64,000 nt of DNA from positions 94,813 to 158,812 of IMG/VR virus record IMGVR_UViG_3300033146_003955. One strand, given 5' to 3'. The position numbers were made by a program, and so were the translations under genes. This document shows positions 1-63,015 of this stretch, in pieces; positions within the stretch are counted from its first letter, which is position 1, and each line of letters opens with the position of its first letter. The stretch comes from a virus. The notes below the pieces were generated by a model that ran no database searches, had not been told where the DNA came from, and worked only from the letters and a program-made list of their open reading frames with translations.

Positions 1-12
1 AAATTTATAGAT

Positions 13-210
13 ATGGTTAATAGATTAAATAATATATCTATGAGTGGGAAAGATGAAAGTAATTTTAATATAATAAAAAAAAGAATATTACAGAAAGTAA
101 TCTTAAGTAGTAAAGACAAACAAGTTTTAAATGATTTATTAAAGGAATACCTATCAGATCATGATAGAATATCTATAGCTATGAAATATTTAAAAAAGGA
201 TGGAAAATGA
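13..210 (+). CDS. hypothetical protein (may be the 3' end of a gene starting before the window)
   Basis: ORF overlaps the next start (ATGA). Confidence 0.5.
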   Translation: MVNRLNNISMSGKDESNFNIIKKRILQKVILSSKDKQVLNDLLKEYLSDHDRISIAMKYLKKDGK

Positions 211-1133
211 AACATTTATTAATAGATGCTAACAATATCGCATCACTTAGCTTTTTCCGCGCTAAATCTATTATGATGAAAGAAATAAATTCTAAAATTG
301 ATATTGATAATGAAAAAGAATTAATTACGGAAGTTCAAAAAAATATTATAGGTTTTTCTACACATATGTTTTTTAACAAACTTCATAGTATTATGAAGTT
401 AAACAAAGGTGCTAAAGTTTATATTATTTGGGATGGTAAAGGCGGTTCTAATTGGAGAAAAAAAATTAATTCTGACTATAAAGCAAATAGGAAACATGGC
501 AATGATAGTTTCTACCCTGTATATATTAATATGATGAATAAATCAAAAGAAATTCTTAAATCTTATCCTGTTGTTCAATTTACAAAGCAAGAAGCTGAAG
601 CTGACGATTTAATTTATTCTATAGTTAAATATGTAAGTAACAACGTTGAATCAGAAGTAGCAACAAATAAATTAATTGATAAATCATATATTAACGTAGT
701 TTCTACAGATACAGATATGATACAGCTGGCACAGCAATTTTCAAATGTAGATATTTATAACCCTATAACTAAAAAAAATCAAGTAATACCAGAATACAAT
801 TATGTACTTTACAAATCTATAGTTGGTGATAAAAGCGATAATATTGTTGGCGTTCCAAGATACGGAAAAAAGAAAGGAGCAAATGCAGCGATAGCTGGTA
901 TTGATTCTATGAAAGAAGAATTTCACCCTCTTATTAAAAATAATTTATTAATTATTGATATGGCACAAAATCCTAATCAAAAAGATAATTATTCATATAT
1001 AAGTGAAATTATTAAAGGAACGAAAATAACTCTTGATATTGATAAAATTAAAAAACACTACTTTGATTTAAAATTAAAATCACTTCTTGATGGATTGGAT
1101 ACTACATCTAAACTATTAAAGAATCTTCTATAA
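207..1133 (+). CDS. 5'-3' exonuclease / flap endonuclease (T4 RNase H, T5 D15-like)
   Basis: LIDAN, WDG, YKANR, EADD, STDTD and GDKSDNIVGV (H3TH) motifs. Confidence 0.9.
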   Translation: MKHLLIDANNIASLSFFRAKSIMMKEINSKIDIDNEKELITEVQKNIIGFSTHMFFNKLHSIMKLNKGAKVYIIWDGKGGSNWRKKINSDYKANRKHGNDSFYPVYINMMNKSKEILKSYPVVQFTKQEAEADDLIYSIVKYVSNNVESEVATNKLIDKSYINVVSTDTDMIQLAQQFSNVDIYNPITKKNQVIPEYNYVLYKSIVGDKSDNIVGVPRYGKKKGANAAIAGIDSMKEEFHPLIKNNLLIIDMAQNPNQKDNYSYISEIIKGTKITLDIDKIKKHYFDLKLKSLLDGLDTTSKLLKNLL

Positions 1134-1136
1134 AAT

Positions 1137-1214
1137 ATATTTCACTCCATTTTTACTATATTTTGGTAATTATATTAAGATAATAGTATATAATAAATAA
1201 GTGGAGTAAAATAT
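1137..1214 (+). promoter_or_regulatory. RBS-sequestering hairpin with AAGATAA promoter motif in the loop
   Basis: 1137-1152 ATATTTCACTCCATTT pairs with 1199-1214 AAGTGGAGTAAAATAT (1 mismatch, 1 G-U), covering GGAG and the start codon; AAGATAA at 1177-1183. Confidence 0.6.
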
Positions 1215-1614
1215 GTTAAAAACTGTCAATTTAATTAATTTTGGAGCTTTTTTAAAAGAAGACATAATAAACGCAATAGGAGAAGAACACTCCATTTTTG
1301 TAAAACAGATAAATATAAAAAATACATCTCTCAACTTGAAAAAACACTCAACGTTTATTCAAGTACACGATCTTGTTGAACAAAATAAAGATTATTTTTC
1401 TGAAGACTTCATCGTTAATCTTCCTGGACTTCCAATATTTGCAGCAATGCTTATCGCTGAAATACATGGCTTAACTGGAGCATTCCCTAAAATAGTAGAA
1501 TGTGTTAAGGATTATAGCCAAGAAGGTATGTTCTCTGAATTTAAATATAAACGATTATACAATTTAGATAGAGAAAGAACACAATCAAGAGAAAATTATA
1601 AAAAATTTAACTAA
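1213..1614 (+). CDS. Csx15-like (CARF-related) protein
   Basis: LINF...IVNLPGLxxxAAxLxAExHGxxGxFPxIV...NLxxxRxxxR matches the Csx15 pattern; 133 aa. Confidence 0.7.
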   Translation: MLKTVNLINFGAFLKEDIINAIGEEHSIFVKQINIKNTSLNLKKHSTFIQVHDLVEQNKDYFSEDFIVNLPGLPIFAAMLIAEIHGLTGAFPKIVECVKDYSQEGMFSEFKYKRLYNLDRERTQSRENYKKFN

Positions 1615-20125: not shown

Positions 20126-21736
20126 ATGATATTAAAAGTAAATGGTATAACAGTTGAAACGAAAATAAAATATACAACTGTTAGAGGTGCTAATTCCATT
20201 AAAATAAATGGAAATTATATATTAAAAAAAAATGATAATATAATATTTAAATGTTGTATATGCAATAAAGAAAAAAATCAAAAATTTAGATTTAAACCCA
20301 AATTTATAGAAGATGATATAATATGTGATTCATGCAATAGAAGTATAAATAATCCATTTAAAAGAAATGATGTTAAAGAAAAGATCAAAAATACAAATTT
20401 AAAACGTTATAACGTTAAAAATTCAATGCAAAATAAAGAGATATTAAAAAAAGCACAACAAAAACAAAAAGATAATAATAATGGTGTTCTAGCCTTCAAT
20501 TCAGATAAACAAAAAAAAACCTTAAAAAAAAAATATGGTAATGAAGTAATATTTAAAACGCAACACTTTAAAGAAAAAACAAAAAAAACTTTATTAAAAA
20601 ATTATGGCGTTGAAAATCCAATGAAATCTGATATTATTAAAAATAAAACCAAATCTACAATGAAAAAACGATATGGAAACGAAATAATATATAAATCTAT
20701 TTATTTTAAAAAAAAATCTAAAAAAACAATACAAGAAAGATATGGTGTAGATTATATTATACAAAATCCCGAAATTAAAGAAAAAATAGAAAATACCATG
20801 ATTACGCGTTATGGATCTAAAACATTTTTAACATCAAATAGATATATTGCTATGGGAATTAATACTAATACATCTAAAACTCATTATGAAATAATTTCAT
20901 TTATTAAAAGTTTTAATATAACAAATATTAAAATAAATAATAGAAAAATTATATCTCCTATGGAACTAGATATTTATTTGCCTGATCATAATATCGCTAT
21001 TGAATTTGATGGTCTTTACTGGCACTCTGATAAGTTTAAAGAGAAAAACTATCATATCAATAAAACCCTTCAGTGTGAGGCTAAAAACATTCATCTTATA
21101 CACATCTTTGAAGATGAGTGGGCTAACAAGAGAGGAATAATTGAAGCTCGGTTAAAAAATCTTTTAGGTTTAAACTCTAAAAGAATTGGAGCCAGAAAAA
21201 CTATAATAAAAGAAATTAGCCCTAAAGTTAAAAATGCTTTCTTAGAAAAACATCATATACAAGGAGAAGATAAAAGTAATATTAAGTTGGGTGCTTATTA
21301 TAGGAACGAATTAATTGGTGTTATGACTTTTTCTAAACCTAGAATATTTATGAGCAAAAAAGCTAAAGATGGAAGTTGGGAACTTAGTAGATTTGCTACT
21401 ATACCGGATACATATACACCAGGATTAGCTTCTAAAATGCTTAAATATTTTGAGAGAGGTTGGAATCCTAAGCTGATAGAATCATTTGCAGATAGAAGAT
21501 GGAGCCAAGGTAATTTATATAAAAAATTAGGTTTTGAACTTGCAAGTCAAACTAATCCTAATTATTATTATTTTAAAAATTTAAAACGATGGCATAGATA
21601 TAAATTTAGAAAATCAGAACTTACCAAGTTTGATAATTATACACCAGAAAAGACTGAGAAAGAAATAATGAACGAAGCCGGATGGGGTAGAATATATGAT
21701 TGTGGTAATTATAAATTTACAAAAGATTATTTTTAG
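20126..21736 (+). CDS. putative homing endonuclease: YGV repeats + PD-(D/E)XK nuclease + Mom/GNAT-like C-terminal domain
   Basis: KKYG repeats; ELDIYLP..IAIEFDGLYWHS; FLEKHHIQG...ELSRFA...SFADRRWSQGNLYKKLGF...IYDCG. Confidence 0.75.
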   Translation: MILKVNGITVETKIKYTTVRGANSIKINGNYILKKNDNIIFKCCICNKEKNQKFRFKPKFIEDDIICDSCNRSINNPFKRNDVKEKIKNTNLKRYNVKNSMQNKEILKKAQQKQKDNNNGVLAFNSDKQKKTLKKKYGNEVIFKTQHFKEKTKKTLLKNYGVENPMKSDIIKNKTKSTMKKRYGNEIIYKSIYFKKKSKKTIQERYGVDYIIQNPEIKEKIENTMITRYGSKTFLTSNRYIAMGINTNTSKTHYEIISFIKSFNITNIKINNRKIISPMELDIYLPDHNIAIEFDGLYWHSDKFKEKNYHINKTLQCEAKNIHLIHIFEDEWANKRGIIEARLKNLLGLNSKRIGARKTIIKEISPKVKNAFLEKHHIQGEDKSNIKLGAYYRNELIGVMTFSKPRIFMSKKAKDGSWELSRFATIPDTYTPGLASKMLKYFERGWNPKLIESFADRRWSQGNLYKKLGFELASQTNPNYYYFKNLKRWHRYKFRKSELTKFDNYTPEKTEKEIMNEAGWGRIYDCGNYKFTKDYF

Positions 21737-34302: not shown

Positions 34303-34794
34303 CTATTTAGATAATAAGTCTTTCGCAATATTATTATTTTGTTTGTTTTTTCTTAAATTTAATTCTTCATTATCATATATAACTTTTCCATTTGCAGATA
34401 TAAATATATCACTATCTATAAAAAAATTAGCAATAAGAGAAATATCAGATTGTGGTCTCTTTTTATTAAATAATGCTTCAACAGTTTTTTTAAAACCAAT
34501 ATCAACTTGATAATATTTTATTGATAATTGCTTTACAATATTTATTATCTTTTCAATGAATGGTTTTCTACTAAAATTTAATTCATTTAAAAACTCATCA
34601 ATTGTTAATTTTTCAATTTTTCCATAATAGTTTAAATATATACTAATTTTATTTTTTTTATTATTAACAAATTCTAACGTAATTTTTCTTTTTTCGTCTT
34701 CAAATATATATCTACCTGAATGTTTTGCTCCACCCGGACCATTATATACATTATCGTTTATTAACAACAATTTAGCTAAATTATTTAATTTCAT
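34303..34794 (-). CDS. hypothetical protein, AKxLL motif at both ends
   Basis: LAKLLL / IAKDLL. Confidence 0.6.
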   Translation of the reverse strand: MKLNNLAKLLLINDNVYNGPGGAKHSGRYIFEDEKRKITLEFVNNKKNKISIYLNYYGKIEKLTIDEFLNELNFSRKPFIEKIINIVKQLSIKYYQVDIGFKKTVEALFNKKRPQSDISLIANFFIDSDIFISANGKVIYDNEELNLRKNKQNNNIAKDLLSK

Positions 34795-35128
34795 TTGTTC
34801 CTTTAATATGTGTAAAATATCTACACAGAGAATTTTTACTTATAGGGGAGTTTGTAATCTCACAACGCTGATATATTAAATGAATATAATATTCAGCACT
34901 CGTATTATACTCTTCAGCAGAGACGTAAACTTTATCATCATAAATATAAGCCATAATCATCCGTCTTATACCATTTTCACTCTTCTCTATCTCTATAACT
35001 GAGGAAGCATAAGAAAGTATATAGGGAAGAGATTTAATTCGTTCAATTTCTATTTCTTCTCTCACATGATTACAATCAAGGCATGTATTTTCAAGTAGAA
35101 GGTTTTTAGCTATATCACCTATATTCAT
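34781..35128 (-). CDS. small Cys4 zinc-binding protein
   Basis: IAKNLLLENTCLDC...C...CRYF. Confidence 0.6.
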   Translation of the reverse strand: MNIGDIAKNLLLENTCLDCNHVREEIEIERIKSLPYILSYASSVIEIEKSENGIRRMIMAYIYDDKVYVSAEEYNTSAEYYIHLIYQRCEITNSPISKNSLCRYFTHIKGTNEIK

Positions 35129-35310
35129 TTTTTAATAAAGTCTCCACATGTTTTAATCTCTAGTATATCTTATACTCAGTGTGTCTTGGAATACCATTCT
35201 ATACTTAATAAGTTACCTATACTATCTTGCCATACTATCTCAGTATCATTATGATAGTAGTGGAAGCAATTAAAACATGTGAAATCTTTTAATATATTAT
35301 TTATGTTTAT
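35125..35310 (-). pseudogene. decayed Cys zinc-binding paralogue
   Basis: ATA at start position, reads TCFNC...KTH*V*DILEIKTCGDF; overlaps both neighbours like a coupled gene. Confidence 0.55.
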
Positions 35311-36269
35311 TACTTAGTTAAAATAAGCTTCCCATTTGAAACTTTAAAATCTTTAACGGCAAAACCAGCAGCCTGCTTGTGTCCACCACCACCGAATGAT
35401 TTAGCAATTATAGAGAGGTCTATATCCTCTCTTGTGGTATAAATTGAACAACCATACTCCTCATATTTCCCATTATATGTATAAGCAAGCATAAAGTCAT
35501 ATTCCTCCTCATTCCACTCAGCATCAAAGAATTGGCTATTCTTAATAAAGGTGTTGGCAACTAAAACTTTATGTCCCATAAGCTCAGCATCGAAAGCAGT
35601 AACACTTAATCCAAATTTATTCTGTTCCTTTTGATATCTATAGAGAAGTTTACCTTTATAGATAGTCTCATCTATAAAATCATTATAGAGGGCGAAATAT
35701 CTACCACTCTTAGGATTATCCCTATCCTGACTAACCATCCAAAGATTATGTAAATGAGACCAAAACATCTGCCAATTATCATCAAACTTAGGGCTTGTAC
35801 TATGCACCTTCATTCCATACTGGAAGGGGATAATTTTATTAAACCATTTTGATCTATCAGATTGATCCCATACATCATATCTACCGAGCATTCTAATATG
35901 TGTGGGCACTTTTATACCAGGATAAAAATATTGCCAGGCCAATTCGCAACCTGCAAGAGCAGCGTCAAGAACACCGCCAGTTACGTACTTCAACATATCT
36001 GAATCTATTACCGTCTTATGATGGTCAATAATATAAACTTCCCAACCATACTTCTTTTCAAACTCTTTCATGTCTTCATTAGGTTGGTAGGTAACATCAA
36101 GGAAGTATACCTTATCGCCCCTCTCAAACTCTTCGAAAGGGAATTCTTGCCCATAATTATATGGGTGCATTGTATATGCTTCCCCTGCTGTATATTCAAA
36201 ATATTCTCTTGCTATTGCACCGCTAGCAGCTCCGTCTAAATCTGCTGAGTGGTATACTATTCTTACCAT
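35310..36269 (-). CDS. DHH/DHHA1 phosphoesterase
   Basis: YHSADLDG, FLD, IDHH, D.WD, GGGGHKQAAGF. Confidence 0.9.
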   Translation of the reverse strand: MVRIVYHSADLDGAASGAIAREYFEYTAGEAYTMHPYNYGQEFPFEEFERGDKVYFLDVTYQPNEDMKEFEKKYGWEVYIIDHHKTVIDSDMLKYVTGGVLDAALAGCELAWQYFYPGIKVPTHIRMLGRYDVWDQSDRSKWFNKIIPFQYGMKVHSTSPKFDDNWQMFWSHLHNLWMVSQDRDNPKSGRYFALYNDFIDETIYKGKLLYRYQKEQNKFGLSVTAFDAELMGHKVLVANTFIKNSQFFDAEWNEEEYDFMLAYTYNGKYEEYGCSIYTTREDIDLSIIAKSFGGGGHKQAAGFAVKDFKVSNGKLILTK

Positions 36270-36270
36270 T

Positions 36271-36564
36271 TTATTCTCCTATTTTCAAATCTATTACTAT
36301 TATTTCTGATGATGCTATTTGTTGTACTTGTGTTGTAATAACATTGTCATCATCAATTATATTAAAATTACGAATTTCGTTTTGTTCTTTTAGCTGAGTT
36401 AATCTTTTTATTATTCTATTTGTTAAAATATTATGTGTTATTACGTCATTTACTTCTCCAATCATATTGCTATATATTTCTTGAATATTTAGCTGTAATT
36501 GCTCTTGAAGAGTTAGATCATCTAAAAGATATCTTTTTGCTTCTACATCTGGCGTTTCTTTCAT
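36271..36564 (-). CDS. hypothetical protein
   Basis: EAKRYLL motif. Confidence 0.6.
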   Translation of the reverse strand: MKETPDVEAKRYLLDDLTLQEQLQLNIQEIYSNMIGEVNDVITHNILTNRIIKRLTQLKEQNEIRNFNIIDDDNVITTQVQQIASSEIIVIDLKIGE

Positions 36565-36860
36565 TTATTCTGTTCATTTCTTCTTTTCATTAAAAATACA
36601 CTCTTTTCTTCTTTTCCCATCCAATGGCTGCAACCGCCAATATCTGGTATTTTCCACCTTCTACCTGGAGCTGAACATCCAAAATCGCCATGGAAAAGGT
36701 CTCTACGAAGTTTTAGCTTCTTTGCTTCATTGTCATCTATTAAAGAATCTTTAGACCAATCTATATAGTGATTTCTGCTACAAGCTAATCTCCAAGCACA
36801 GGAGATACATTCTTTACCGGCTAGGAGAAACTTTATGCCTTCAATATCCGTAGAATTCAT
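36561..36860 (-). CDS. small Cys zinc-binding protein
   Basis: CISC...C...C...CSHW. Confidence 0.6.
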   Translation of the reverse strand: MNSTDIEGIKFLLAGKECISCAWRLACSRNHYIDWSKDSLIDDNEAKKLKLRRDLFHGDFGCSAPGRRWKIPDIGGCSHWMGKEEKSVFLMKRRNEQNK

Positions 36861-37074
36861 GTGGTTTTTTATCCTTATTATATCCTATATCAGGATTCAC
36901 GCGTCCATATCTATTTTTATCACTTGACCAGTCCCAACATATTCTCTCATTAGGGAATTGGGTATTAAACCATAAACATATAGCCCCATCATAAGGACTG
37001 TCATTATAACCCATACAATTATCACAAGTCTTCCCCTCCAAGAGATTTTTTGCAACAATATTACTACTTTCCAT
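36841..37074 (-). CDS. small Cys4 zinc-binding protein
   Basis: VAKNLLEGKTCDNC...C...CWDW. Confidence 0.6.
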   Translation of the reverse strand: MESSNIVAKNLLEGKTCDNCMGYNDSPYDGAICLWFNTQFPNERICWDWSSDKNRYGRVNPDIGYNKDKKPHEFYGY

Positions 37075-40284: not shown

Positions 40285-40312
40285 GGTAAAAGGGACCGAA
40301 GCCCCTCTTACC
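40285..40312 (-). terminator. UUCG-capped hairpin after CCA C-terminal gene
   Basis: GGTAAGAGGGG-CTTCGG-TCCCTTTTACC on - strand; weak U-tract. Confidence 0.6.
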
Positions 40313-41447
40313 AGTTTTTTGCGATTGTCAGTGCTTCTTCAAAAGTGGTAATCTCTTCACCAAGCTGAAGTTCACTGATGTGATTAAGAATCTCTTTGAA
40401 AAGAGGTCCTGGCTTGAAACCCATATCGATAAGATGCCGGCCAGAAATAAGTGGTTCTGGCAGTTCAATCTGATCTTCAAGAGTCCCAACAAAGGATTTA
40501 ACTTTCTCAACCCAATCAAGTTTAGTCAGACAAGGCTCAGCACAAATTGCACTTTCAGTATCTGCTTTAGAAACAATAACAAGACTATCAAGTCTCTCAT
40601 CTGCAACAAGTCTACGCAGAGTTGATTTCTTCATTTCCTTAGCATATTTAATTCTCATATGATTTTCAACGAGCCAAACAATATCATTAGTTTCCTTACT
40701 TGAGAATCTCAGCCTGTTAAGTATGTCCCTTGCAATTTCAGCACCAGCTTTATCATGACCATGAGCTTTAATCATACCATCTTCGATAGTAAAAGTGGCA
40801 GGTTTTCCAATGTCATGAAGCAGCGCAGCCCAAAGAAGAATAACATTATCAGTCTCCTTCCTAACAGCATCAAGAGTCATCATAGAATGTACACCTACCG
40901 AACCTTCACTGTGCCATTTAGGTGCTTGTTCACATCTCCAAAGTTTCTCAACTTCAGGAAGGATTGGTTCAAGCAGACCAGATGCTCTAAGCATTTCAAT
41001 ACCAATAGATGGTTTAGGAGCCATAAGCATTTTATTCATTTCATCGTGAATTCTCTCCTGAGATACAGAATCAATTTCACCAGCATGTTTCTTAATTGCT
41101 CCCCAAGAAGCCTCATCAAGTTTGAAATCAAACTTCGAAGTGAAGCGGATCGCCCTAAGCATACGAAGTTTATCTTCTTCGATTCTTCTCTTAGGGGAAC
41201 CAACAAATTTAACCAGTCCGTTCATAAGGTCTTTTTCACCATGAGTAAAATCAAAAATCTCTTCACTAATAGGATCAAAGAAAAGTGCATTCATAGTAAG
41301 GTCTCTTCTCATAGCATCTTCCTTCATTGAAGAGAACTCAACACTATCAGGCCTACGACCGTCACTTTCCAAAGTTATACATTCACCTTCTGGATGGATG
41401 CAGTGCCCCTCAAACCATTTACATTTATTACACATTGTTTTGTTCAT
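40308..41447 (-). CDS. cca: class II CCA tRNA nucleotidyltransferase, C-terminal half with HD domain, fused behind a Cys-rich leader
   Basis: DGRRP, RRDLTMNAL, EDKLRMLRAIRF, ERIHDE, H.EG.V..H, LLHDIGKP, GPLFKEIL. Confidence 0.9.
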   Translation of the reverse strand: MNKTMCNKCKWFEGHCIHPEGECITLESDGRRPDSVEFSSMKEDAMRRDLTMNALFFDPISEEIFDFTHGEKDLMNGLVKFVGSPKRRIEEDKLRMLRAIRFTSKFDFKLDEASWGAIKKHAGEIDSVSQERIHDEMNKMLMAPKPSIGIEMLRASGLLEPILPEVEKLWRCEQAPKWHSEGSVGVHSMMTLDAVRKETDNVILLWAALLHDIGKPATFTIEDGMIKAHGHDKAGAEIARDILNRLRFSSKETNDIVWLVENHMRIKYAKEMKKSTLRRLVADERLDSLVIVSKADTESAICAEPCLTKLDWVEKVKSFVGTLEDQIELPEPLISGRHLIDMGFKPGPLFKEILNHISELQLGEEITTFEEALTIAKNW

Positions 41448-41453
41448 ATCTAT

Positions 41454-41481
41454 ATTATACCACGTTCTTTGAAATGTCCAA
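41454..41481 (-). promoter_or_regulatory. leaderless promoter TTGGACA-N15-TATAAT-N6-ATG
   Basis: same layout at 43010-43037 and 62988-63015. Confidence 0.75.
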
Positions 41482-41554
41482 AATTAAATATGCTAAAAAC
41501 ACAACCTTTTGTGGAAAGATGACAAGATAACTATATAACAATGAAGGAGCTAAT

Positions 41555-41692
41555 ATGGAAAGTGAAAAACAAGTTAGATTGGATAAGGAGACATGGGAGA
41601 CATTGAAAATAATGTCTGTTAAAGAAAATAAATCAATGAAACAAGTTATAAAGGAAATGGTGAATGATAGAGAAAGTAATAATAAACAATAA
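41555..41692 (+). CDS. ribbon-helix-helix DNA-binding protein, 45 aa (not in ORF track)
   Basis: MESEKQVRLDKETWETLKIMSVKENKSMKQVIKEMV; AAGGAG RBS; AAGATAA at 41524-41530. Confidence 0.7.
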   Translation: MESEKQVRLDKETWETLKIMSVKENKSMKQVIKEMVNDRESNNKQ

Positions 41693-42704
41693 AGAAATTA
41701 TAGTTAAAAATTATAATGAAATTATACATTCTCATAAATATGGTAAAGAAAAAATTACTCTATATATAAATAATGTCTATTATCTTAAAACAAAAGATTT
41801 TATCCAGTATACTTGTGATGGGTGTGGTAATGATGAAACTAAAGAATATGCTTATAATTATAATAAATATCACCAAAATGAAGTATTGTGTGGTGAATGT
41901 TTAAAAAAGAAATCAAGATTAGAAAAATATGGCGTTGAAAATTTCTTTCAAAAAAAAGAAATACATAAAAAAGCACGGATAAATAGATCAACACAAGAGG
42001 CTAAAAATAAAACTAAACAAACAAAATTAAGTCGTTACGGAACTGAAAATTATAATAATAAAGAAAAAACAAAACAAACATGCATAAAAAGATATGGCGG
42101 TAATAGTCCTATGTCTGACCCAGTAATTAAAGGAAAATTAAACATATATTGGAATAATTTAAAAAATGATGATTATAATACCAAGGTAAAAAATAAACGT
42201 AAAGAAACGTGTCTCAAAAAGTATGGAGTAGAATACACGACACAAACTGATATAATGAAAGAAAAGTCTAAACAAACTTGTTTAAAGAATTATGGTGTTG
42301 AATATCCAGCTCAAAATCCAGAAATTCATAGAAGACAGATGTCACGGTTTGGTAAAACTAATACATTAAAACAAATAAATGAAGATTTACATTATCAAAC
42401 TATTCCTGAATTAGAATGTATTGAATATTGCCAATTTAATAATACAAATATATGGGATGGTCCTTCTATACCTTACATATTTGAAAATAAAAAACATATC
42501 TATCATGTAGATTTTGAAACTGATGAATACATAATAGAGATAAAAGGAAGTCATGGCTGGTATAAAAAGAATTTAGCGTCAGGTAAAATAGAAGCCAAAA
42601 ACAAAGCAGCACAAGAATATGCTGCTTCTGTAAATAAAGAATTTTTGTTTCTATTAGATATTAAAAATTATCTTTTTTTAGGTTCAAAATTTTTACAAGA
42701 ATAA
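41664..42704 (+). CDS. free-standing putative homing endonuclease (zinc ribbon + YGVE repeats + PD-(D/E)XK)
   Basis: CDGC..CGEC, TCLKKYGVE repeats, YHVDF...IIEIKG; antisense, between the two cca halves. Confidence 0.8.
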   Translation: MIEKVIINNKEIIVKNYNEIIHSHKYGKEKITLYINNVYYLKTKDFIQYTCDGCGNDETKEYAYNYNKYHQNEVLCGECLKKKSRLEKYGVENFFQKKEIHKKARINRSTQEAKNKTKQTKLSRYGTENYNNKEKTKQTCIKRYGGNSPMSDPVIKGKLNIYWNNLKNDDYNTKVKNKRKETCLKKYGVEYTTQTDIMKEKSKQTCLKNYGVEYPAQNPEIHRRQMSRFGKTNTLKQINEDLHYQTIPELECIEYCQFNNTNIWDGPSIPYIFENKKHIYHVDFETDEYIIEIKGSHGWYKKNLASGKIEAKNKAAQEYAASVNKEFLFLLDIKNYLFLGSKFLQE

Positions 42705-43003
42705 TCATGAGTTCTGGCTTGAAAAGTAGCACACTCAAATTCTTCATTTTTATGGAGAACAACAATAATTCCAAACTGTTTACCGACAGGTACAGTTCTT
42801 GGAAAAAGAAATTCTATCTCCTCGGGACGTGCATCTGTAGCAATATCCACATCATGCGGCTCATGACCAAGAAGAATATCACGGACTGCGCCTCCCGCAA
42901 TAACGCCAGCAAAACCGTTATCTTTAAGGATGGAAATAACTTCAGTAGCAGCCTGAAACATACTTGAGTCTTTTATATTTTTGTTTAGTTTAATCTTTCT
43001 CAT
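42668..43003 (-). CDS. cca: class II CCA tRNA nucleotidyltransferase, N-terminal catalytic half
   Basis: AGGAVRDILLG..PHDVDIATDA.P, VGKQFG, EFECATF. Confidence 0.9.
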   Translation of the reverse strand: MRKIKLNKNIKDSSMFQAATEVISILKDNGFAGVIAGGAVRDILLGHEPHDVDIATDARPEEIEFLFPRTVPVGKQFGIIVVLHKNEEFECATFQARTHDYSCKNFEPKKR

Positions 43004-43009
43004 ACTTCT

Positions 43010-43037
43010 ATTATACCATATATTAGGAAATGTCCAA
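43010..43037 (-). promoter_or_regulatory. leaderless promoter TTGGACA-N15-TATAAT-N6-ATG
   Basis: same architecture as the promoter of the C-terminal half. Confidence 0.75.
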
Positions 43038-43043
43038 AACTCT

Positions 43044-44137: not shown

Positions 44138-44512
44138 TTATTTAACTATTTTAAGGACCGTTTTGGTCTTATGTAATTCTTTTTCTAATTCTAGATACTT
44201 TTTACCTTTTTTAGAATTGTTACCAAATTTACTCATTTTATTTTTAATAGATGATATCTTATTTTCGTATTGTTCAATTAATTCTTTTTTCTGTCTAGAA
44301 TCAACTTTTTCTAGGATGGGGTTTTTTTTAATACCATCTATATTATAAAGACTTATGGTAGTTTCTTCACCATCAGGATTCTTAAGAGTAAAATATTCCT
44401 CATCATCCTTCATATCTTTAATAGTCCAGGTATCAAGACTGTTAGGAATAGTTACTTCGTCGCCCACCTTAAGATCACCTTTTATTTCATTAACTATTTT
44501 TTTAAAATTCAT
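44138..44512 (-). CDS. possible head-internal protein
   Basis: MNFKKIVNE, internal ILE. Confidence 0.6.
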   Translation of the reverse strand: MNFKKIVNEIKGDLKVGDEVTIPNSLDTWTIKDMKDDEEYFTLKNPDGEETTISLYNIDGIKKNPILEKVDSRQKKELIEQYENKISSIKNKMSKFGNNSKKGKKYLELEKELHKTKTVLKIVK

Positions 44513-45582
44513 ATTAATACCTCACTTAATTTTTCTTCAATATTTTCATTATATTTTATTCTTATTAATTGTATGTTATTATCTTTACAATATTTATTTT
44601 TTATTGCATCATTTTGTTGTCGATATTTTAAACCTTTTTTACCATCCCAAATTTCTTTGATAACAAAATGTTGTTCACCATCATATTCTACTAATATATT
44701 TGTTTCAGGAAGATAAAAGTCAAAAGGCAACGGTTTGACATTTTTACAATCATTAAATTTATATTGTCTTATATATTGTATATTTTTATTATCTAAATAT
44801 TCAGCTACAGCTTTTTCACCTTTAGATTCATTACACTTAAAACAGCCTTTACCTTGTAAATGACTTTTCGGATTTTGTTCGAATAAGCCATGTTTTGGAC
44901 ATATTATTTTAATTTTAGTTTTATTGTTTATATATTTTACTAAAGAATAATCATATTTATTATTATGTTTTAATTTAACTTTTTGTATAAATTCACTATT
45001 ACTATATTTATATTTTCCAGAACATATTTTACAGCCTTGCCCGTTTAAATGTGCATATGGTTGCTGTTTAAATATACCGTGTTCTGGACATATTATTTTA
45101 ACTTTAGTTTTACTATCTTCATAATCGATTAATGAATAATTATATTTATTATTATGTTTTAATTTAGCTTTTTTAATAAATTCTTTTGTAGTTAATTTAT
45201 ATGTTGTACTACATTTAAAACATCCATGTGTATAATGATTATTTGGGGTTTGTTCAAATATACCATGTTCTGGACATATTATTTTAATTTTAGTACTATT
45301 ATTTATATAATCAACTAAAGAATAATCATATTTGTTGTTGTGAATTTTAGAAGCTTTTTTTATGAATTCTCCTGTAATCAATTTATGTTTATTCACGTTA
45401 CATTTTGAACAGCCTCTACCACGCAAATGGTTTGATATTAATTGCCAAAATATACCATGCTCTGGACATATTATTTTAACTTTAGTTTTACTATCTTTAT
45501 AATCAACTAAAGAATAATCATATTTATTCCCATGTACAGCTTTAGCTTTTTTTATAAATTCTTCAGTAGTTAACTTCTTCAT
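44509..45582 (-). CDS. putative homing endonuclease (KYDYSLV/ICPEHG zinc repeats + PD-(D/E)XK)
   Basis: four FIKKA..HxNKYDYSLV.Y...IICPEHG...GC..C repeats; LPFDFYLP...VEYDGEQH. Confidence 0.8.
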   Translation of the reverse strand: MKKLTTEEFIKKAKAVHGNKYDYSLVDYKDSKTKVKIICPEHGIFWQLISNHLRGRGCSKCNVNKHKLITGEFIKKASKIHNNKYDYSLVDYINNSTKIKIICPEHGIFEQTPNNHYTHGCFKCSTTYKLTTKEFIKKAKLKHNNKYNYSLIDYEDSKTKVKIICPEHGIFKQQPYAHLNGQGCKICSGKYKYSNSEFIQKVKLKHNNKYDYSLVKYINNKTKIKIICPKHGLFEQNPKSHLQGKGCFKCNESKGEKAVAEYLDNKNIQYIRQYKFNDCKNVKPLPFDFYLPETNILVEYDGEQHFVIKEIWDGKKGLKYRQQNDAIKNKYCKDNNIQLIRIKYNENIEEKLSEVLI

Positions 45583-61259: not shown

Positions 61260-62981
61260 TTAATAATCCACGTTAGGATACTGCTTGTAGTAATCTTTAT
61301 CTGTATCTTCCGCCCATTTAAATTTCTTTTGAAGTGTTGGTGTGAATACTCTTTTCACTTCAATATCATTAGCCTTACAGAAAGAATATATAATTCTAGG
61401 TGAAATGTAATTAGTTTTAGAAGTTCCGGTAGCTATCCCGGAAGTCTTTTTCTTAATATCAATTTTAGTCTCAAGATTTTCCACTCTCATTTTCAATCTT
61501 TCGACTCTTGCTTCCCAAGTTGTTTTTTTCTTTTTGAAAGTTGCTTTAGCTCTTCTTATTGAATCTTTCTGTTTCACACCAGTATATTTCTTTTTAGCGA
61601 GTTTGACTCTTTCATCTTTTATTTTTTTAGCTTTTTCGATTTCAATTGATGCTTCAGCCTTTTTATCTCGAAGCTCAATTTTCATATTCTTAAGCTTATC
61701 TTTCATATTCTTAAGAGAAATTTTGTACGCAGGAGAGACTGCAGTTTGATGGTTAAGCTTAATCGCAACTTCAAGATTTGCATCTGTGAAAAATTTCATT
61801 TTCTGGCCAACAGTCATACCTTTAAGATTACCCTTACTTAACTCTTCAGCAAGAAGTTTTGAACCATAAGCAGTTCTGAATACTTTAGCAGTTACACCTT
61901 CAACTATTGAAGATAGAAATTCATTAACATCCTTAGAGGTAATTCCAGGAAAGAGTTGAGCTGAAGGTTTTTTACCCTTACAAAGCCATACAAAATTTCT
62001 AATCATAGATGGAGAGAATGATACAACTTTGTTATATCTAATTGAATCTTTACCAAGGAAATCAAATTCAATAGTTCCTTCCACCTCATCAATTTTAATA
62101 TGTTCTGAGAGCAAAGAGGTTGCGCCGAATGTATCTGCAGTATCTTCACTTTTTTCATCACCAACTCTTATAGCAAGCTGCGAAATTAGTTTAGCAACAG
62201 TTGCAACTTTCCGAGTCTGACTAAGTTTATCATTCAATTTCTTATCAATTTCAGCATTGATAAAATCAAGATTTTTAGCCAACTTAATTGCTTTATTAAA
62301 TTTACTCTGGTCTGATTTCTGCTTAACTATAGAGTCATTGCTGAATAAAACTTTTTTATATTCCCCAGTTAATTCCTGTTTCCAGGACGCAACCATAAGA
62401 GCATTTTTGTTTTCTACCACTTCTTTCCAAGAGTGACCTTCAGGAGGCTTAGGACCGGAACCAGAACAGTTTATAGTTATATCTTCAGGGAATGTTCTAA
62501 CTTTAAGCGAACCTCTAAGAGGATGCTTCCCCCTACCCATAAAAAGTCCTGGAGGTTCAATAGTATAATTGCCAAGAGCAATTCTTTTACCATCAAGAGT
62601 AGCAAAGCCAAATTTCTCTTTACGAGCAGCAGCCTCTTCCTTCTCTTTTTTCTTAATTTCTTTACTTCTATTTTTCTTAACTTCTTTCTTATATTCAAGA
62701 TCTCGGATTATATTAATAAAATCCCAATCTTTAGGAAATGAAGTTGTTTTTAATTCTTTAGAAAGAAAAGGTTTAAAATCTCTCCAAAAATTCTTTTGGA
62801 ACACAGGATCTTTTACGTAATCTGTCGCATGCTTTTGAGCCCAAAATACTGCTACTTCTTCTGCTTCCTTTGAGAGAATTACAGTTTTACCTTGTACCTT
62901 AATTTCATACTTTTGATACTGATATAAAGGAGGAAAAACTGGTCCTAAATGTGTTAACGTTTGCCATTTATTTGTTTTCAT
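61260..62981 (-). CDS. top1: DNA topoisomerase IB, long eukaryote/thaumarchaeal type
   Basis: KWQTL.H.GP.FPP.Y, EPPGLF.GRG.HP..G, IRVG, FLGKD, KVFRT, LNH, coiled-coil linker, GTSK.NYI.PRI; start set at second Met from promoter spacing (track start 62987). Confidence 0.92.
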   Translation of the reverse strand: MKTNKWQTLTHLGPVFPPLYQYQKYEIKVQGKTVILSKEAEEVAVFWAQKHATDYVKDPVFQKNFWRDFKPFLSKELKTTSFPKDWDFINIIRDLEYKKEVKKNRSKEIKKKEKEEAAARKEKFGFATLDGKRIALGNYTIEPPGLFMGRGKHPLRGSLKVRTFPEDITINCSGSGPKPPEGHSWKEVVENKNALMVASWKQELTGEYKKVLFSNDSIVKQKSDQSKFNKAIKLAKNLDFINAEIDKKLNDKLSQTRKVATVAKLISQLAIRVGDEKSEDTADTFGATSLLSEHIKIDEVEGTIEFDFLGKDSIRYNKVVSFSPSMIRNFVWLCKGKKPSAQLFPGITSKDVNEFLSSIVEGVTAKVFRTAYGSKLLAEELSKGNLKGMTVGQKMKFFTDANLEVAIKLNHQTAVSPAYKISLKNMKDKLKNMKIELRDKKAEASIEIEKAKKIKDERVKLAKKKYTGVKQKDSIRRAKATFKKKKTTWEARVERLKMRVENLETKIDIKKKTSGIATGTSKTNYISPRIIYSFCKANDIEVKRVFTPTLQKKFKWAEDTDKDYYKQYPNVDY

Positions 62982-62987
62982 GATCAT

Positions 62988-63015
62988 ATTATACTATATA
63001 ATCTCCATTGTCCAA
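62988..63015 (-). promoter_or_regulatory. leaderless promoter TTGGACA-N15-TATAAT-N6-ATG
   Basis: third copy of the motif. Confidence 0.7.

Follow-up and report, generated by a model that had tools for sequence, protein, structure and literature searches.

A tRNA CCA-adding enzyme of a large phage encoded as two tagged halves around an antisense endonuclease cassette

How can a phage keep an enzyme whose gene is cut in the middle of its catalytic domain? The question is raised by a tRNA CCA-adding enzyme gene in IMG/VR virus record IMGVR_UViG_3300033146_003955. We analysed the stretch from position 94,813 to position 158,812 of this record, hereafter the window, which is the final 64 kb of a 158.8-kb sequence of AT-rich phage DNA, about 80% complete according to CheckV. 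Two open reading frames (ORFs) on the minus strand, the N-half and the C-half, together encode the enzyme, and a ribbon-helix-helix (RHH) gene and a putative homing endonuclease gene lie between them on the other strand (Table 1). As far as the sequence tells, the CCA-adding enzyme of this large phage is made in the form of two separate proteins, since its gene is split by a mobile endonuclease cassette that lies antisense in the catalytic loop. At the break, each half bears a short peptide that is foreign to CCA-adding enzymes, a tail at the end of the N-half and a head at the start of the C-half, and these two cysteine-bearing end-peptides probably help the halves to work together. We estimate at about 80% the probability that the cassette is a free-standing homing-endonuclease unit carrying a promoter and the end-peptides, that it is mobile among phage CCA genes and that the halves reassemble. 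Literature searches turned up no report of a split phage CCA enzyme. In the following, L-numbers designate related metagenomic loci and P-numbers homologous proteins (P0122 corresponds to L171 and P0123 to L170).

Taken together, the two ORFs encode a class II CCA-adding enzyme, with PF01743, PF12627, PF01966, PF13735 and the invariant catalytic columns found across both halves. The N-half bears motif A (G-G-x-V-R-D and the D-x-D carboxylates), and its residues 35-105 match positions 3-77 of the Pfam PolyA_pol profile (1.5e-18). Homologous short N-halves were found (P0122 and P0123), and the gene calls of the relatives begin at the methionine equivalent to residue 15. The C-half takes up the head domain again at D-G-R-R-P (with motif B, R-R-D, and all that follows) and continues into the RNA-binding neck and the HD domain; its residues 27-79 match positions 72-125 of PolyA_pol and are followed by PolyA_pol_RNAbd, HD and tRNA_NucTran2_2. 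Used as a query, the C-half retrieved 7305 homologues, the intact enzymes being about 440 amino acids (aa) long. A gene that is contiguous in its relatives is therefore present here as two ORFs that jointly cover the PolyA_pol profile, and the cut falls between motifs A and B. Intact relatives have the strand F-E-V-A-T-F-R, next a variable loop stretch of about seven residues, and after it D-G-R-R-P. According to the alignment, the N-half of the window keeps the strand and the loop residues to about Y101/S102, and the C-half resumes at about S28/D29. The additions that do not belong to CCA enzymes are thus about 9 residues that end the N-half and about 27 residues that open the C-half.

It is generally known that phage genes invaded by endonucleases are often rescued through introns or inteins (see also PMC3045599). 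By analogy, the interruption could be removed by a group I or II intron, a split intein or translational bypass to give one polypeptide, or the gene could simply be dead. However, no intron or other RNA family was detected with Rfam covariance models, either in the whole window at the gathering score or in the interval 41200-42900 at E-values up to 10, and the endonuclease and RHH ORFs are antisense to their host gene. The tail (7-9 aa) and the head (27 aa) are too short for an intein and carry no intein end motifs, the head ending in L-D/E and not in H-N. In addition, each half has conserved start and stop codons and retains its catalytic motifs. The ratio of nonsynonymous to synonymous substitution rates (dN/dS) is 0.17-0.24 for the N-half against L170 and L171, and 0.25 for the C-half against L001. 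Both halves and the RHH gene evolve under purifying selection (dN/dS 0.05-0.25), and the halves are therefore not decaying pseudogenes. We consider it highly improbable that the interruption is removed or that the gene is dead.

We then considered the two end-peptides, which have no equivalent in intact homologues and form unique extensions at the new C- and N-termini. In alignments, the tail finds no counterpart in intact CCA enzymes. Its core is invariant across 6 distinct N-halves and is kept, with synonymous codon variation, in the window, L170, L171, L002, L172-174 and L177. The short N-halves (P0122/L171, P0123/L170, L002, L172-174 and L177) all terminate in S-C-K/R-N-F-E/K-P plus 1-3 residues. 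In the window, the last 37 nt of the endonuclease ORF overlap the end of the N-half. The tail is nevertheless retained in L171, L002 and L177, where the overlapping endonuclease ORF is absent, and antisense constraint is therefore not the explanation for its conservation. The head was found again in P0002, P0003, P0004 and P0038 during the C-half search, and later in P0131 and L172-174. It starts with Met and 3-4 residues, followed by C-x-K-C-K/N-W-F, 3-4 further residues, C-x-H and x-D/E-G; then usually comes a fifth Cys, before L/I-D/E-x-D-G-R-R-P. Cys6, Cys9, Trp11, Phe12, Cys16 and His18 are invariant and Cys23 is present in 6 of 7 sequences. The head is conserved across these 7 distinct C-halves, although their CCA bodies are merely 43-70% identical to that of the window. 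The proportion of nonsynonymous differences in the head (pN 0.17-0.35) is well below that of synonymous ones (pS 0.39-0.75). Head and tail are thus to be regarded as genuine, selected protein parts.

Outside split CCA genes, nothing similar was found. When 1.84 billion representative proteins were searched with a profile of the head, split CCA C-halves were the only matches, this profile of 29 positions being weak enough for remote relatives to escape it. Head residues 1-30 gave nothing above noise in the ESM Atlas. Extended DNA patterns for the head and the tail, searched in viral and metagenome collections, yielded only noise in the wrong frame, motifs of SPASM domains and a few small cysteine-containing ORFs that are unrelated; none of these contained a Pfam family.

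The distribution of these parts indicates mobility. The same tags and the RHH gene are present in at least ten other metagenomic loci, and the head, the tail, the RHH gene and the extended -10 promoter recur jointly in divergent phages. The CCA body, taken to start at D-G-R-R-P, was used for a maximum-likelihood tree of the five split forms then known and 44 intact enzymes. The split forms occupy at least three well-supported positions, and forcing them into a single clade costs 212 log-likelihood units (approximately unbiased test, P = 8.6e-40). The similarity of the RHH proteins does not run parallel to that of the CCA enzymes: the window and L002 share 76% identity in RHH and 56% in the CCA body, compared with 64% and 70%, respectively, for the window and L001. 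Moreover, the N-half of L002 changes affinity along its length. Its first part is identical to the intact P0005 at 39 of 45 positions (87%) but beside the cassette at only 22 of 47 (47%). Compared with the split L172, the first part is 60% identical (27/45) and the cassette-proximal part 85% (44/52). These contrasts with P0005 and L172 are significant (Fisher test, P = 6e-5 and 0.011, respectively). On the other side, the C-half body of L002 is P0005-like straight from the junction (37/40, 33/40, 35/40 and so on). L002 thus appears as a clear mosaic, such as would be left by double-strand-break repair with co-conversion from a cassette-bearing donor, and its breakpoint suggests an endonuclease cut site about 120-150 bp upstream of the insertion point.

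The interval between the RHH gene and the tail, which we call the endonuclease slot, varies in content from locus to locus. In the window it holds an ORF that matches Pfam DUF7487 (1e-20) and PHROG 3339 and 12131, both annotated as 'homing endonuclease'; the break thus carries a free-standing putative homing endonuclease gene with neither intron nor intein. A DUF7487 gene also occupies the slot in L170, which encodes a matching C-terminal end, in L001, which encodes an endonuclease start 57% identical over 54 aa, and in the contig of P0038. In L172-174 and L178, the slot contains a GIY-YIG gene (Pfam 34.6 bits, cut-off 22.6). It is empty in L002, whose tail still includes the antisense of the last seven codons and no more of the endonuclease, and the gap of L177 likewise holds nothing. 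The DUF7487 protein of the window and the GIY-YIG protein of L172 (L172:5110-5913) belong to unrelated families and yet share their terminal seven residues, since either ORF crosses the tail in antisense and finishes at the common stop codon. What stays constant is the set of tail, RHH gene, control region and head, and the endonuclease is, on this comparison of loci, best described as an exchangeable passenger of the cassette. From the recurring tags, the polyphyletic CCA bodies, the L002 mosaic and the variable slot, we conclude that the tagged cassette moves by homing. Searches of IMG/VR retrieved no close relatives with the C-half as query, only distant free-standing relatives of the endonuclease (27-40% identity) in unrelated contexts, and, with the RHH alignment, one weak match with no adjoining CCA gene.

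The locus L177 (L177:1-1811) has a more complex organization, with a CCA gene in three pieces. The tagged N-half (1038-1349, minus strand) and the tagged C-half (242-820, minus strand) are accompanied by a third ORF. The C-half ends after W-H-A-E-G and 10 extra residues, and the third ORF (3-149, minus strand), only 92 nt downstream, opens with about 38 extra residues before it rejoins the CCA sequence in the HD motif. This second break thus has its own tail and head around a gap that contains no gene. In the region L177:818-1620, the RHH gene is located upstream of the N-half and not between the halves, and so is the beginning of an endonuclease-like ORF. A segment of about 115 nt with operator-like repeats, promoter and ribosome-binding site is duplicated before both halves, with about 90% identity.

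The preliminary description of the window locus, made from the letters alone, had offered an integration scar as one of two explanations of the end-peptides. A circle carrying a small zinc-finger gene, the RHH gene and the endonuclease gene would have recombined with the CCA gene at an A-A-A-G-T core, through its own zinc-finger gene, and could be excised again. The peptides and positions given for the end of the N-half ORF and the start of the C-half ORF were right, as was the placement of the RHH and endonuclease genes between the halves. It is also correct that two 14-mers at the junctions agree at 10 of 14 positions, 1352 bp apart and in the same codon phase. The order of tail, cassette, promoter and head matches a Campbell-type insertion through a small gene, and loose C-x2-C ... 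C-x2-F patterns are found in other small ORFs. However, the repeat does not exceed chance: when the 40 and 45 codons nearest the junctions were shuffled 500 times, 91% of the shuffles yielded an in-phase match of 10/14 or better. The real junction regions hold 16 in-phase pairs of at least 10/14, with even one match of 11/14. Our repeat search of the window did not list the 14-mer pair and joined the same 13-mer to another partner, which matches it better, again by chance (D13). The proposed E-C-x-T likeness of the junctions is absent from relatives, whose heads read A-C-V-Q, P-K-L-E, S-C-L-K or S-C-V-K and whose N-halves often read E-V-A. The proposed crossover would remove about 8 residues, which the alignment assigns to the flexible loop native to intact relatives, and the middle of the supposed 43-aa zinc-finger protein is this same loop. 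With a chance repeat and native loop residues in the 'reconstituted' peptide, the excision model loses its basis.

In addition, no integrase or recombinase is present among the domain matches of the window (Pfam, PHROG). The search of 1.84 billion representatives with the head profile, which returned CCA C-halves only, revealed no free zinc-finger gene and no other tagged split genes. The genes at 34781, 36561 and 36841, said to resemble the tags, share only a loose C-x2-C with them (best BLASTP E-value 8.8). The L002 mosaic fits homologous repair and not site-specific exchange. The marks of a site-specific integrative element, namely a repeat beyond chance, a recombinase and a free small gene, are thus all lacking, and we give the integration scar hardly any credence. 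Two other suggestions of the same description fared better. Its caveat that A-R-T-H-D-Y-S might be the native loop, in favour of assembly at the protein level, holds. The idea of a mobile element that rescues its target with a promoter and end-peptides is supported in outline, since the parts recur together and have moved between CCA lineages.

How would the two halves be expressed? On the minus strand, the C-half is preceded by TTGGACA (41475-41481) and by the extended -10 TGGTATAAT (41454-41462), 6 nt ahead of the ATG. A 40-nt direct repeat that spans TTGGACA, TGGTATAAT and the ATG six bases on stands ahead of both halves. The strict promoter pattern occurs only at these two CCA sites in the 158.8-kb record, and a looser pattern adds a third, before the TopIB gene (62988-63015, minus strand). 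The arrangement TTGGACA-N15-TATAAT-N6-ATG is found three times in the window (62979-63015, 43001-43037 and 41445-41481, all on the minus strand) for 0.06 expected, and the two CCA copies are the most alike of the three sites. With two strict sites and one looser site, we infer a rare promoter class of this phage. It probably yields leaderless mRNAs, as suggested by the distance of 6 nt from the -10 element to the ATG. The promoters of the N-half and the C-half are also matched in L172, and in L177 (about 90% over 115 nt). The simplest reading of these matched promoters would be a co-ordinated expression of the two CCA halves. The four aligned loci (window, L001, L002 and L003) have in common the TGnTATAAT element before the C-half and also tandem repeats of the G-T-T-A-T type, grouped in a block. 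These repeats lie next to the RHH ribosome-binding site and are a candidate operator for the RHH protein. The RHH gene is the first gene of the endonuclease operon, and its copies are 64-95% identical in every related locus examined (dN/dS 0.11-0.12). Its product is a probable repressor of the cassette promoter region.

Table 1. Features of the split CCA locus (positions in the window).
Feature	Positions	Strand	Description
CCA-adding enzyme C-half	40308..41447	-	379 aa; ORF and Pfam domains
C-half head	41367..41447	-	About 27 non-CCA residues with their own start codon
Repeat copies	41371..41384 and 42723..42736		Chance match, not a recombination site; unconserved in relatives
Divergent control region	41448..41554		C-half promoter and repeats beside the RHH ribosome-binding site
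RHH gene	41555..41692	+	45 aa; weak RHH and Arc-like matches below Pfam cut-offs
Homing endonuclease (putative), DUF7487	41664..42704	+	346 aa, antisense to the CCA gene
N-half tail	42668..42697	-	9 non-CCA residues and the stop codon; core S-C-K/R-N-F invariant
CCA-adding enzyme N-half	42668..43003	-	111 aa from the first ATG; ORF and Pfam PolyA_pol
N-half promoter	43000..43039	-	40-nt copy (78%) of the C-half promoter region 41444-41483 (direct repeat D3)

The cassette comprises the tail of the N-half, the endonuclease slot, the RHH gene, the divergent promoter/operator region and the Cys/His head of about 27 residues on the C-half. This anatomy, its conservation, the selection on the tags and the lateral movement are established by the comparisons above. 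For the mechanism, we propose the following scenario. Two polypeptides would be made separately from the matched promoters and would meet at the native interface to restore the nucleotidyltransferase head domain. The head and tail brought by the cassette would aid assembly or loop function, like the insertion-derived tails that NrdA-a and NrdA-b bear in Aeromonas phage Aeh1. The cassette would spread among phage CCA genes by endonuclease-driven homing with co-conversion, and would persist once the endonuclease is swapped or lost.

To evaluate the assembly step, we used models of the complex between the C-half, Zn and the N-half, built in three runs with custom alignments. The ipSAE score was 0.83, compared with 0.04 for the best control; the benchmark mark for this score is reached by 58 of 80 solved complexes and by 2 of 110 mismatched pairs. 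The runs share at least 58% of their contacts, and the predicted local distance difference test (pLDDT) of the partner is at least 77. The confident contacts join residues 37-74 of the C-half to residues 1-57 and 93-97 of the N-half, i.e. the native interface of the head domain. The models thus support a binding of the halves through this interface, and their success largely reflects how closely the halves resemble intact CCA enzymes of solved structure.

The role of the tags is a more delicate question. One possible arrangement, which we put forward tentatively, is a zinc clasp in which Cys6, Cys9 and Cys16 (or His18) of the head and the Cys of the tail share one metal ion and link the two chains at the cut loop. 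The C-x2-C, the C-x-H and the tail Cys are invariant at all loci, and no fold is predicted for the head alone. The charges of the tags (tails 0 to +3, heads -1 to +2) show no consistent complementarity that could replace such a link. Furthermore, some of the single-chain ORFs retrieved with the head motif (L070, L047 and L153) pair C-x2-C-K-W-F with a later C-x2-F-E near their C-terminus. Such a pattern therefore exists within one domain, but these ORFs are not detectably homologous to the tags. A further difficulty is that the head alone holds four invariant ligands (C, C, C and H), and the tail Cys is therefore dispensable for completing a metal site. Other candidate ligands vary (Cys91 and His99 of the N-half, Cys23 of the head). 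The structure models bear neither for nor against the clasp, and the low confidence of the head in the model of the C-half alone is no guide to a fold that depends on metal.

The same four ligands, grouped within 13 residues, fit another reading in which the tags are not mutually bound. The head would be a self-contained C-C-C-H metal knuckle, or a loop substitute at the nucleotide pocket or the tRNA 3' end, and the tail would serve another purpose, e.g. capping the cut strand. The cut sits in the loop that determines CTP-to-ATP specificity (PMC2910056), and a replacement element could be selected there for catalysis; besides, the Aeh1 tails are not needed for the heterodimer itself (PMC3045599). 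This self-contained head has to account for the tail Cys, which is invariant and always accompanies the head. We consider each of the two readings less likely than not, and the self-contained head slightly less probable than the clasp. The strongest version of the clasp would make the cassette a portable 'cut-and-rescue' module, whose complementary Cys/His peptides re-tie the fragments via a shared metal and which also brings a promoter, a small repressor and a passenger endonuclease. In our opinion, this version is doubtful. If true, such a module could enter a coding sequence midway with no need of an intron or intein, and the tags would be a natural, transferable heterodimerisation device.

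Several observations weigh against a mobile homing cassette whose two enzyme halves reassemble with the help of their tags. Neither the head (residues 1-27) nor the tail is among the confident contacts of the complex model, and in an AlphaFold2 model of the C-half alone, residues 1-27 have a pLDDT below 50, compared with more than 90 for the body. The class II flexible loop, variable in sequence, is required for the switch from C to A addition; it is needed to add A76, and its loss limits the enzyme to CC addition (PMC2910056). The split enzyme could therefore be restricted to CC addition. No catalytic domain was assigned to the window endonuclease with Pfam and no structural relative was found by a sequence search of the PDB; its activity is therefore inferred from family labels. 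Finally, the related loci are mostly short metagenomic contigs, and the C-half of L001 and the N-half of L171 are on separate contigs, so that their pairing is only presumed.

Other genes of the window deserve mention. A second free-standing endonuclease-like gene (44509-45582, minus strand, 357 aa), which matches PHROG 559 'HNH endonuclease' (E = 1.7e-99), contains four DUF723/treble-clef zinc-ribbon repeats and a DUF559-like C-terminal domain. It is located among small genes and adjoins a 1159-aa fibre-like gene. A 544-aa frame carries, at about 20369-20818 (115181-115630 of the record), DUF7487-type repeats that are 39-44% identical to those in the endonuclease of the cassette over some 60-90 aa (E of about 4e-8), and may encode another homing endonuclease. 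Three small ORFs of 115, 99 and 77 aa (34781-37074, minus strand) have a common N-terminal A-K-N-L-L ... C-x2-C. Two of them match each other weakly (E 0.004-0.006), and they are unrelated to the CCA tags and contain no Pfam family. At the scale of the whole window, no tRNA genes were found, and the only DNA matches are weak ones to Prevotella Lak megaphages.

Finally, we compared the locus with known systems. The CD4/CD8-Lck zinc clasp and the Rad50 zinc hook are intermolecular zinc sites. As in these sites, short Cys peptides from two chains could share one metal ion; there is however no sequence relation, and the ligands would be split here 3+1 and not 2+2. Some bacteria possess separate CC-adding and A-adding enzymes (PMC2910056, PMC7014341), which belong to the same family and involve the same loop, but these are two complete paralogues with partial activities, whereas the window encodes two fragments of one enzyme. 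A concrete enzymological question is raised by the position of the cut, in the very loop through which class II enzymes pass from adding C to adding A. The topoisomerase gp39/gp60 of phage T4, split at the mobA insertion, is likewise a phage enzyme whose division is associated with an endonuclease and which has tail-like extensions (PMC3045599). In contrast to the window locus, it lacks a Cys motif, an RHH gene and a separate pair of promoters; the role of its tails is speculative as well.

The closest precedent is the ribonucleotide reductase locus nrdA-a/mobE/nrdA-b of Aeromonas phage Aeh1, described as 'genes in pieces' (Crona et al. 2011, PMC3045599). There, the tails arose with the endonuclease insertion and are essential for activity, and the authors proposed them as a possibly general antidote carried by the element (PMC3045599). 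In both cases, a free-standing homing endonuclease gene interrupts the catalytic domain of an essential-type enzyme, neither intron nor intein is present, and the active site is divided over two polypeptides. At the sequence level, the window locus displays all the defining features of the Aeh1 NrdA type. The host gene differs, being here that of a CCA-adding enzyme. Whereas all the Aeh1 genes are on one operon mRNA, the cassette of the window is antisense, with its own RHH gene and a promoter for the second half. The Aeh1 tails are oppositely charged, in contrast to the tags, which are rich in Cys, His and aromatic residues and show no consistent charge pairing. Aeh1 is moreover a single case, whereas the tags described here are common to many loci, travel with the cassette and outlast the endonuclease. 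The tags may serve as a short natural metal-dependent heterodimerisation pair. The logic of Aeh1 is thus found in a different enzyme, with conserved and selected tags that move between divergent phage genes and outlive the endonuclease, and what was a single case becomes a family open to comparison and testing.

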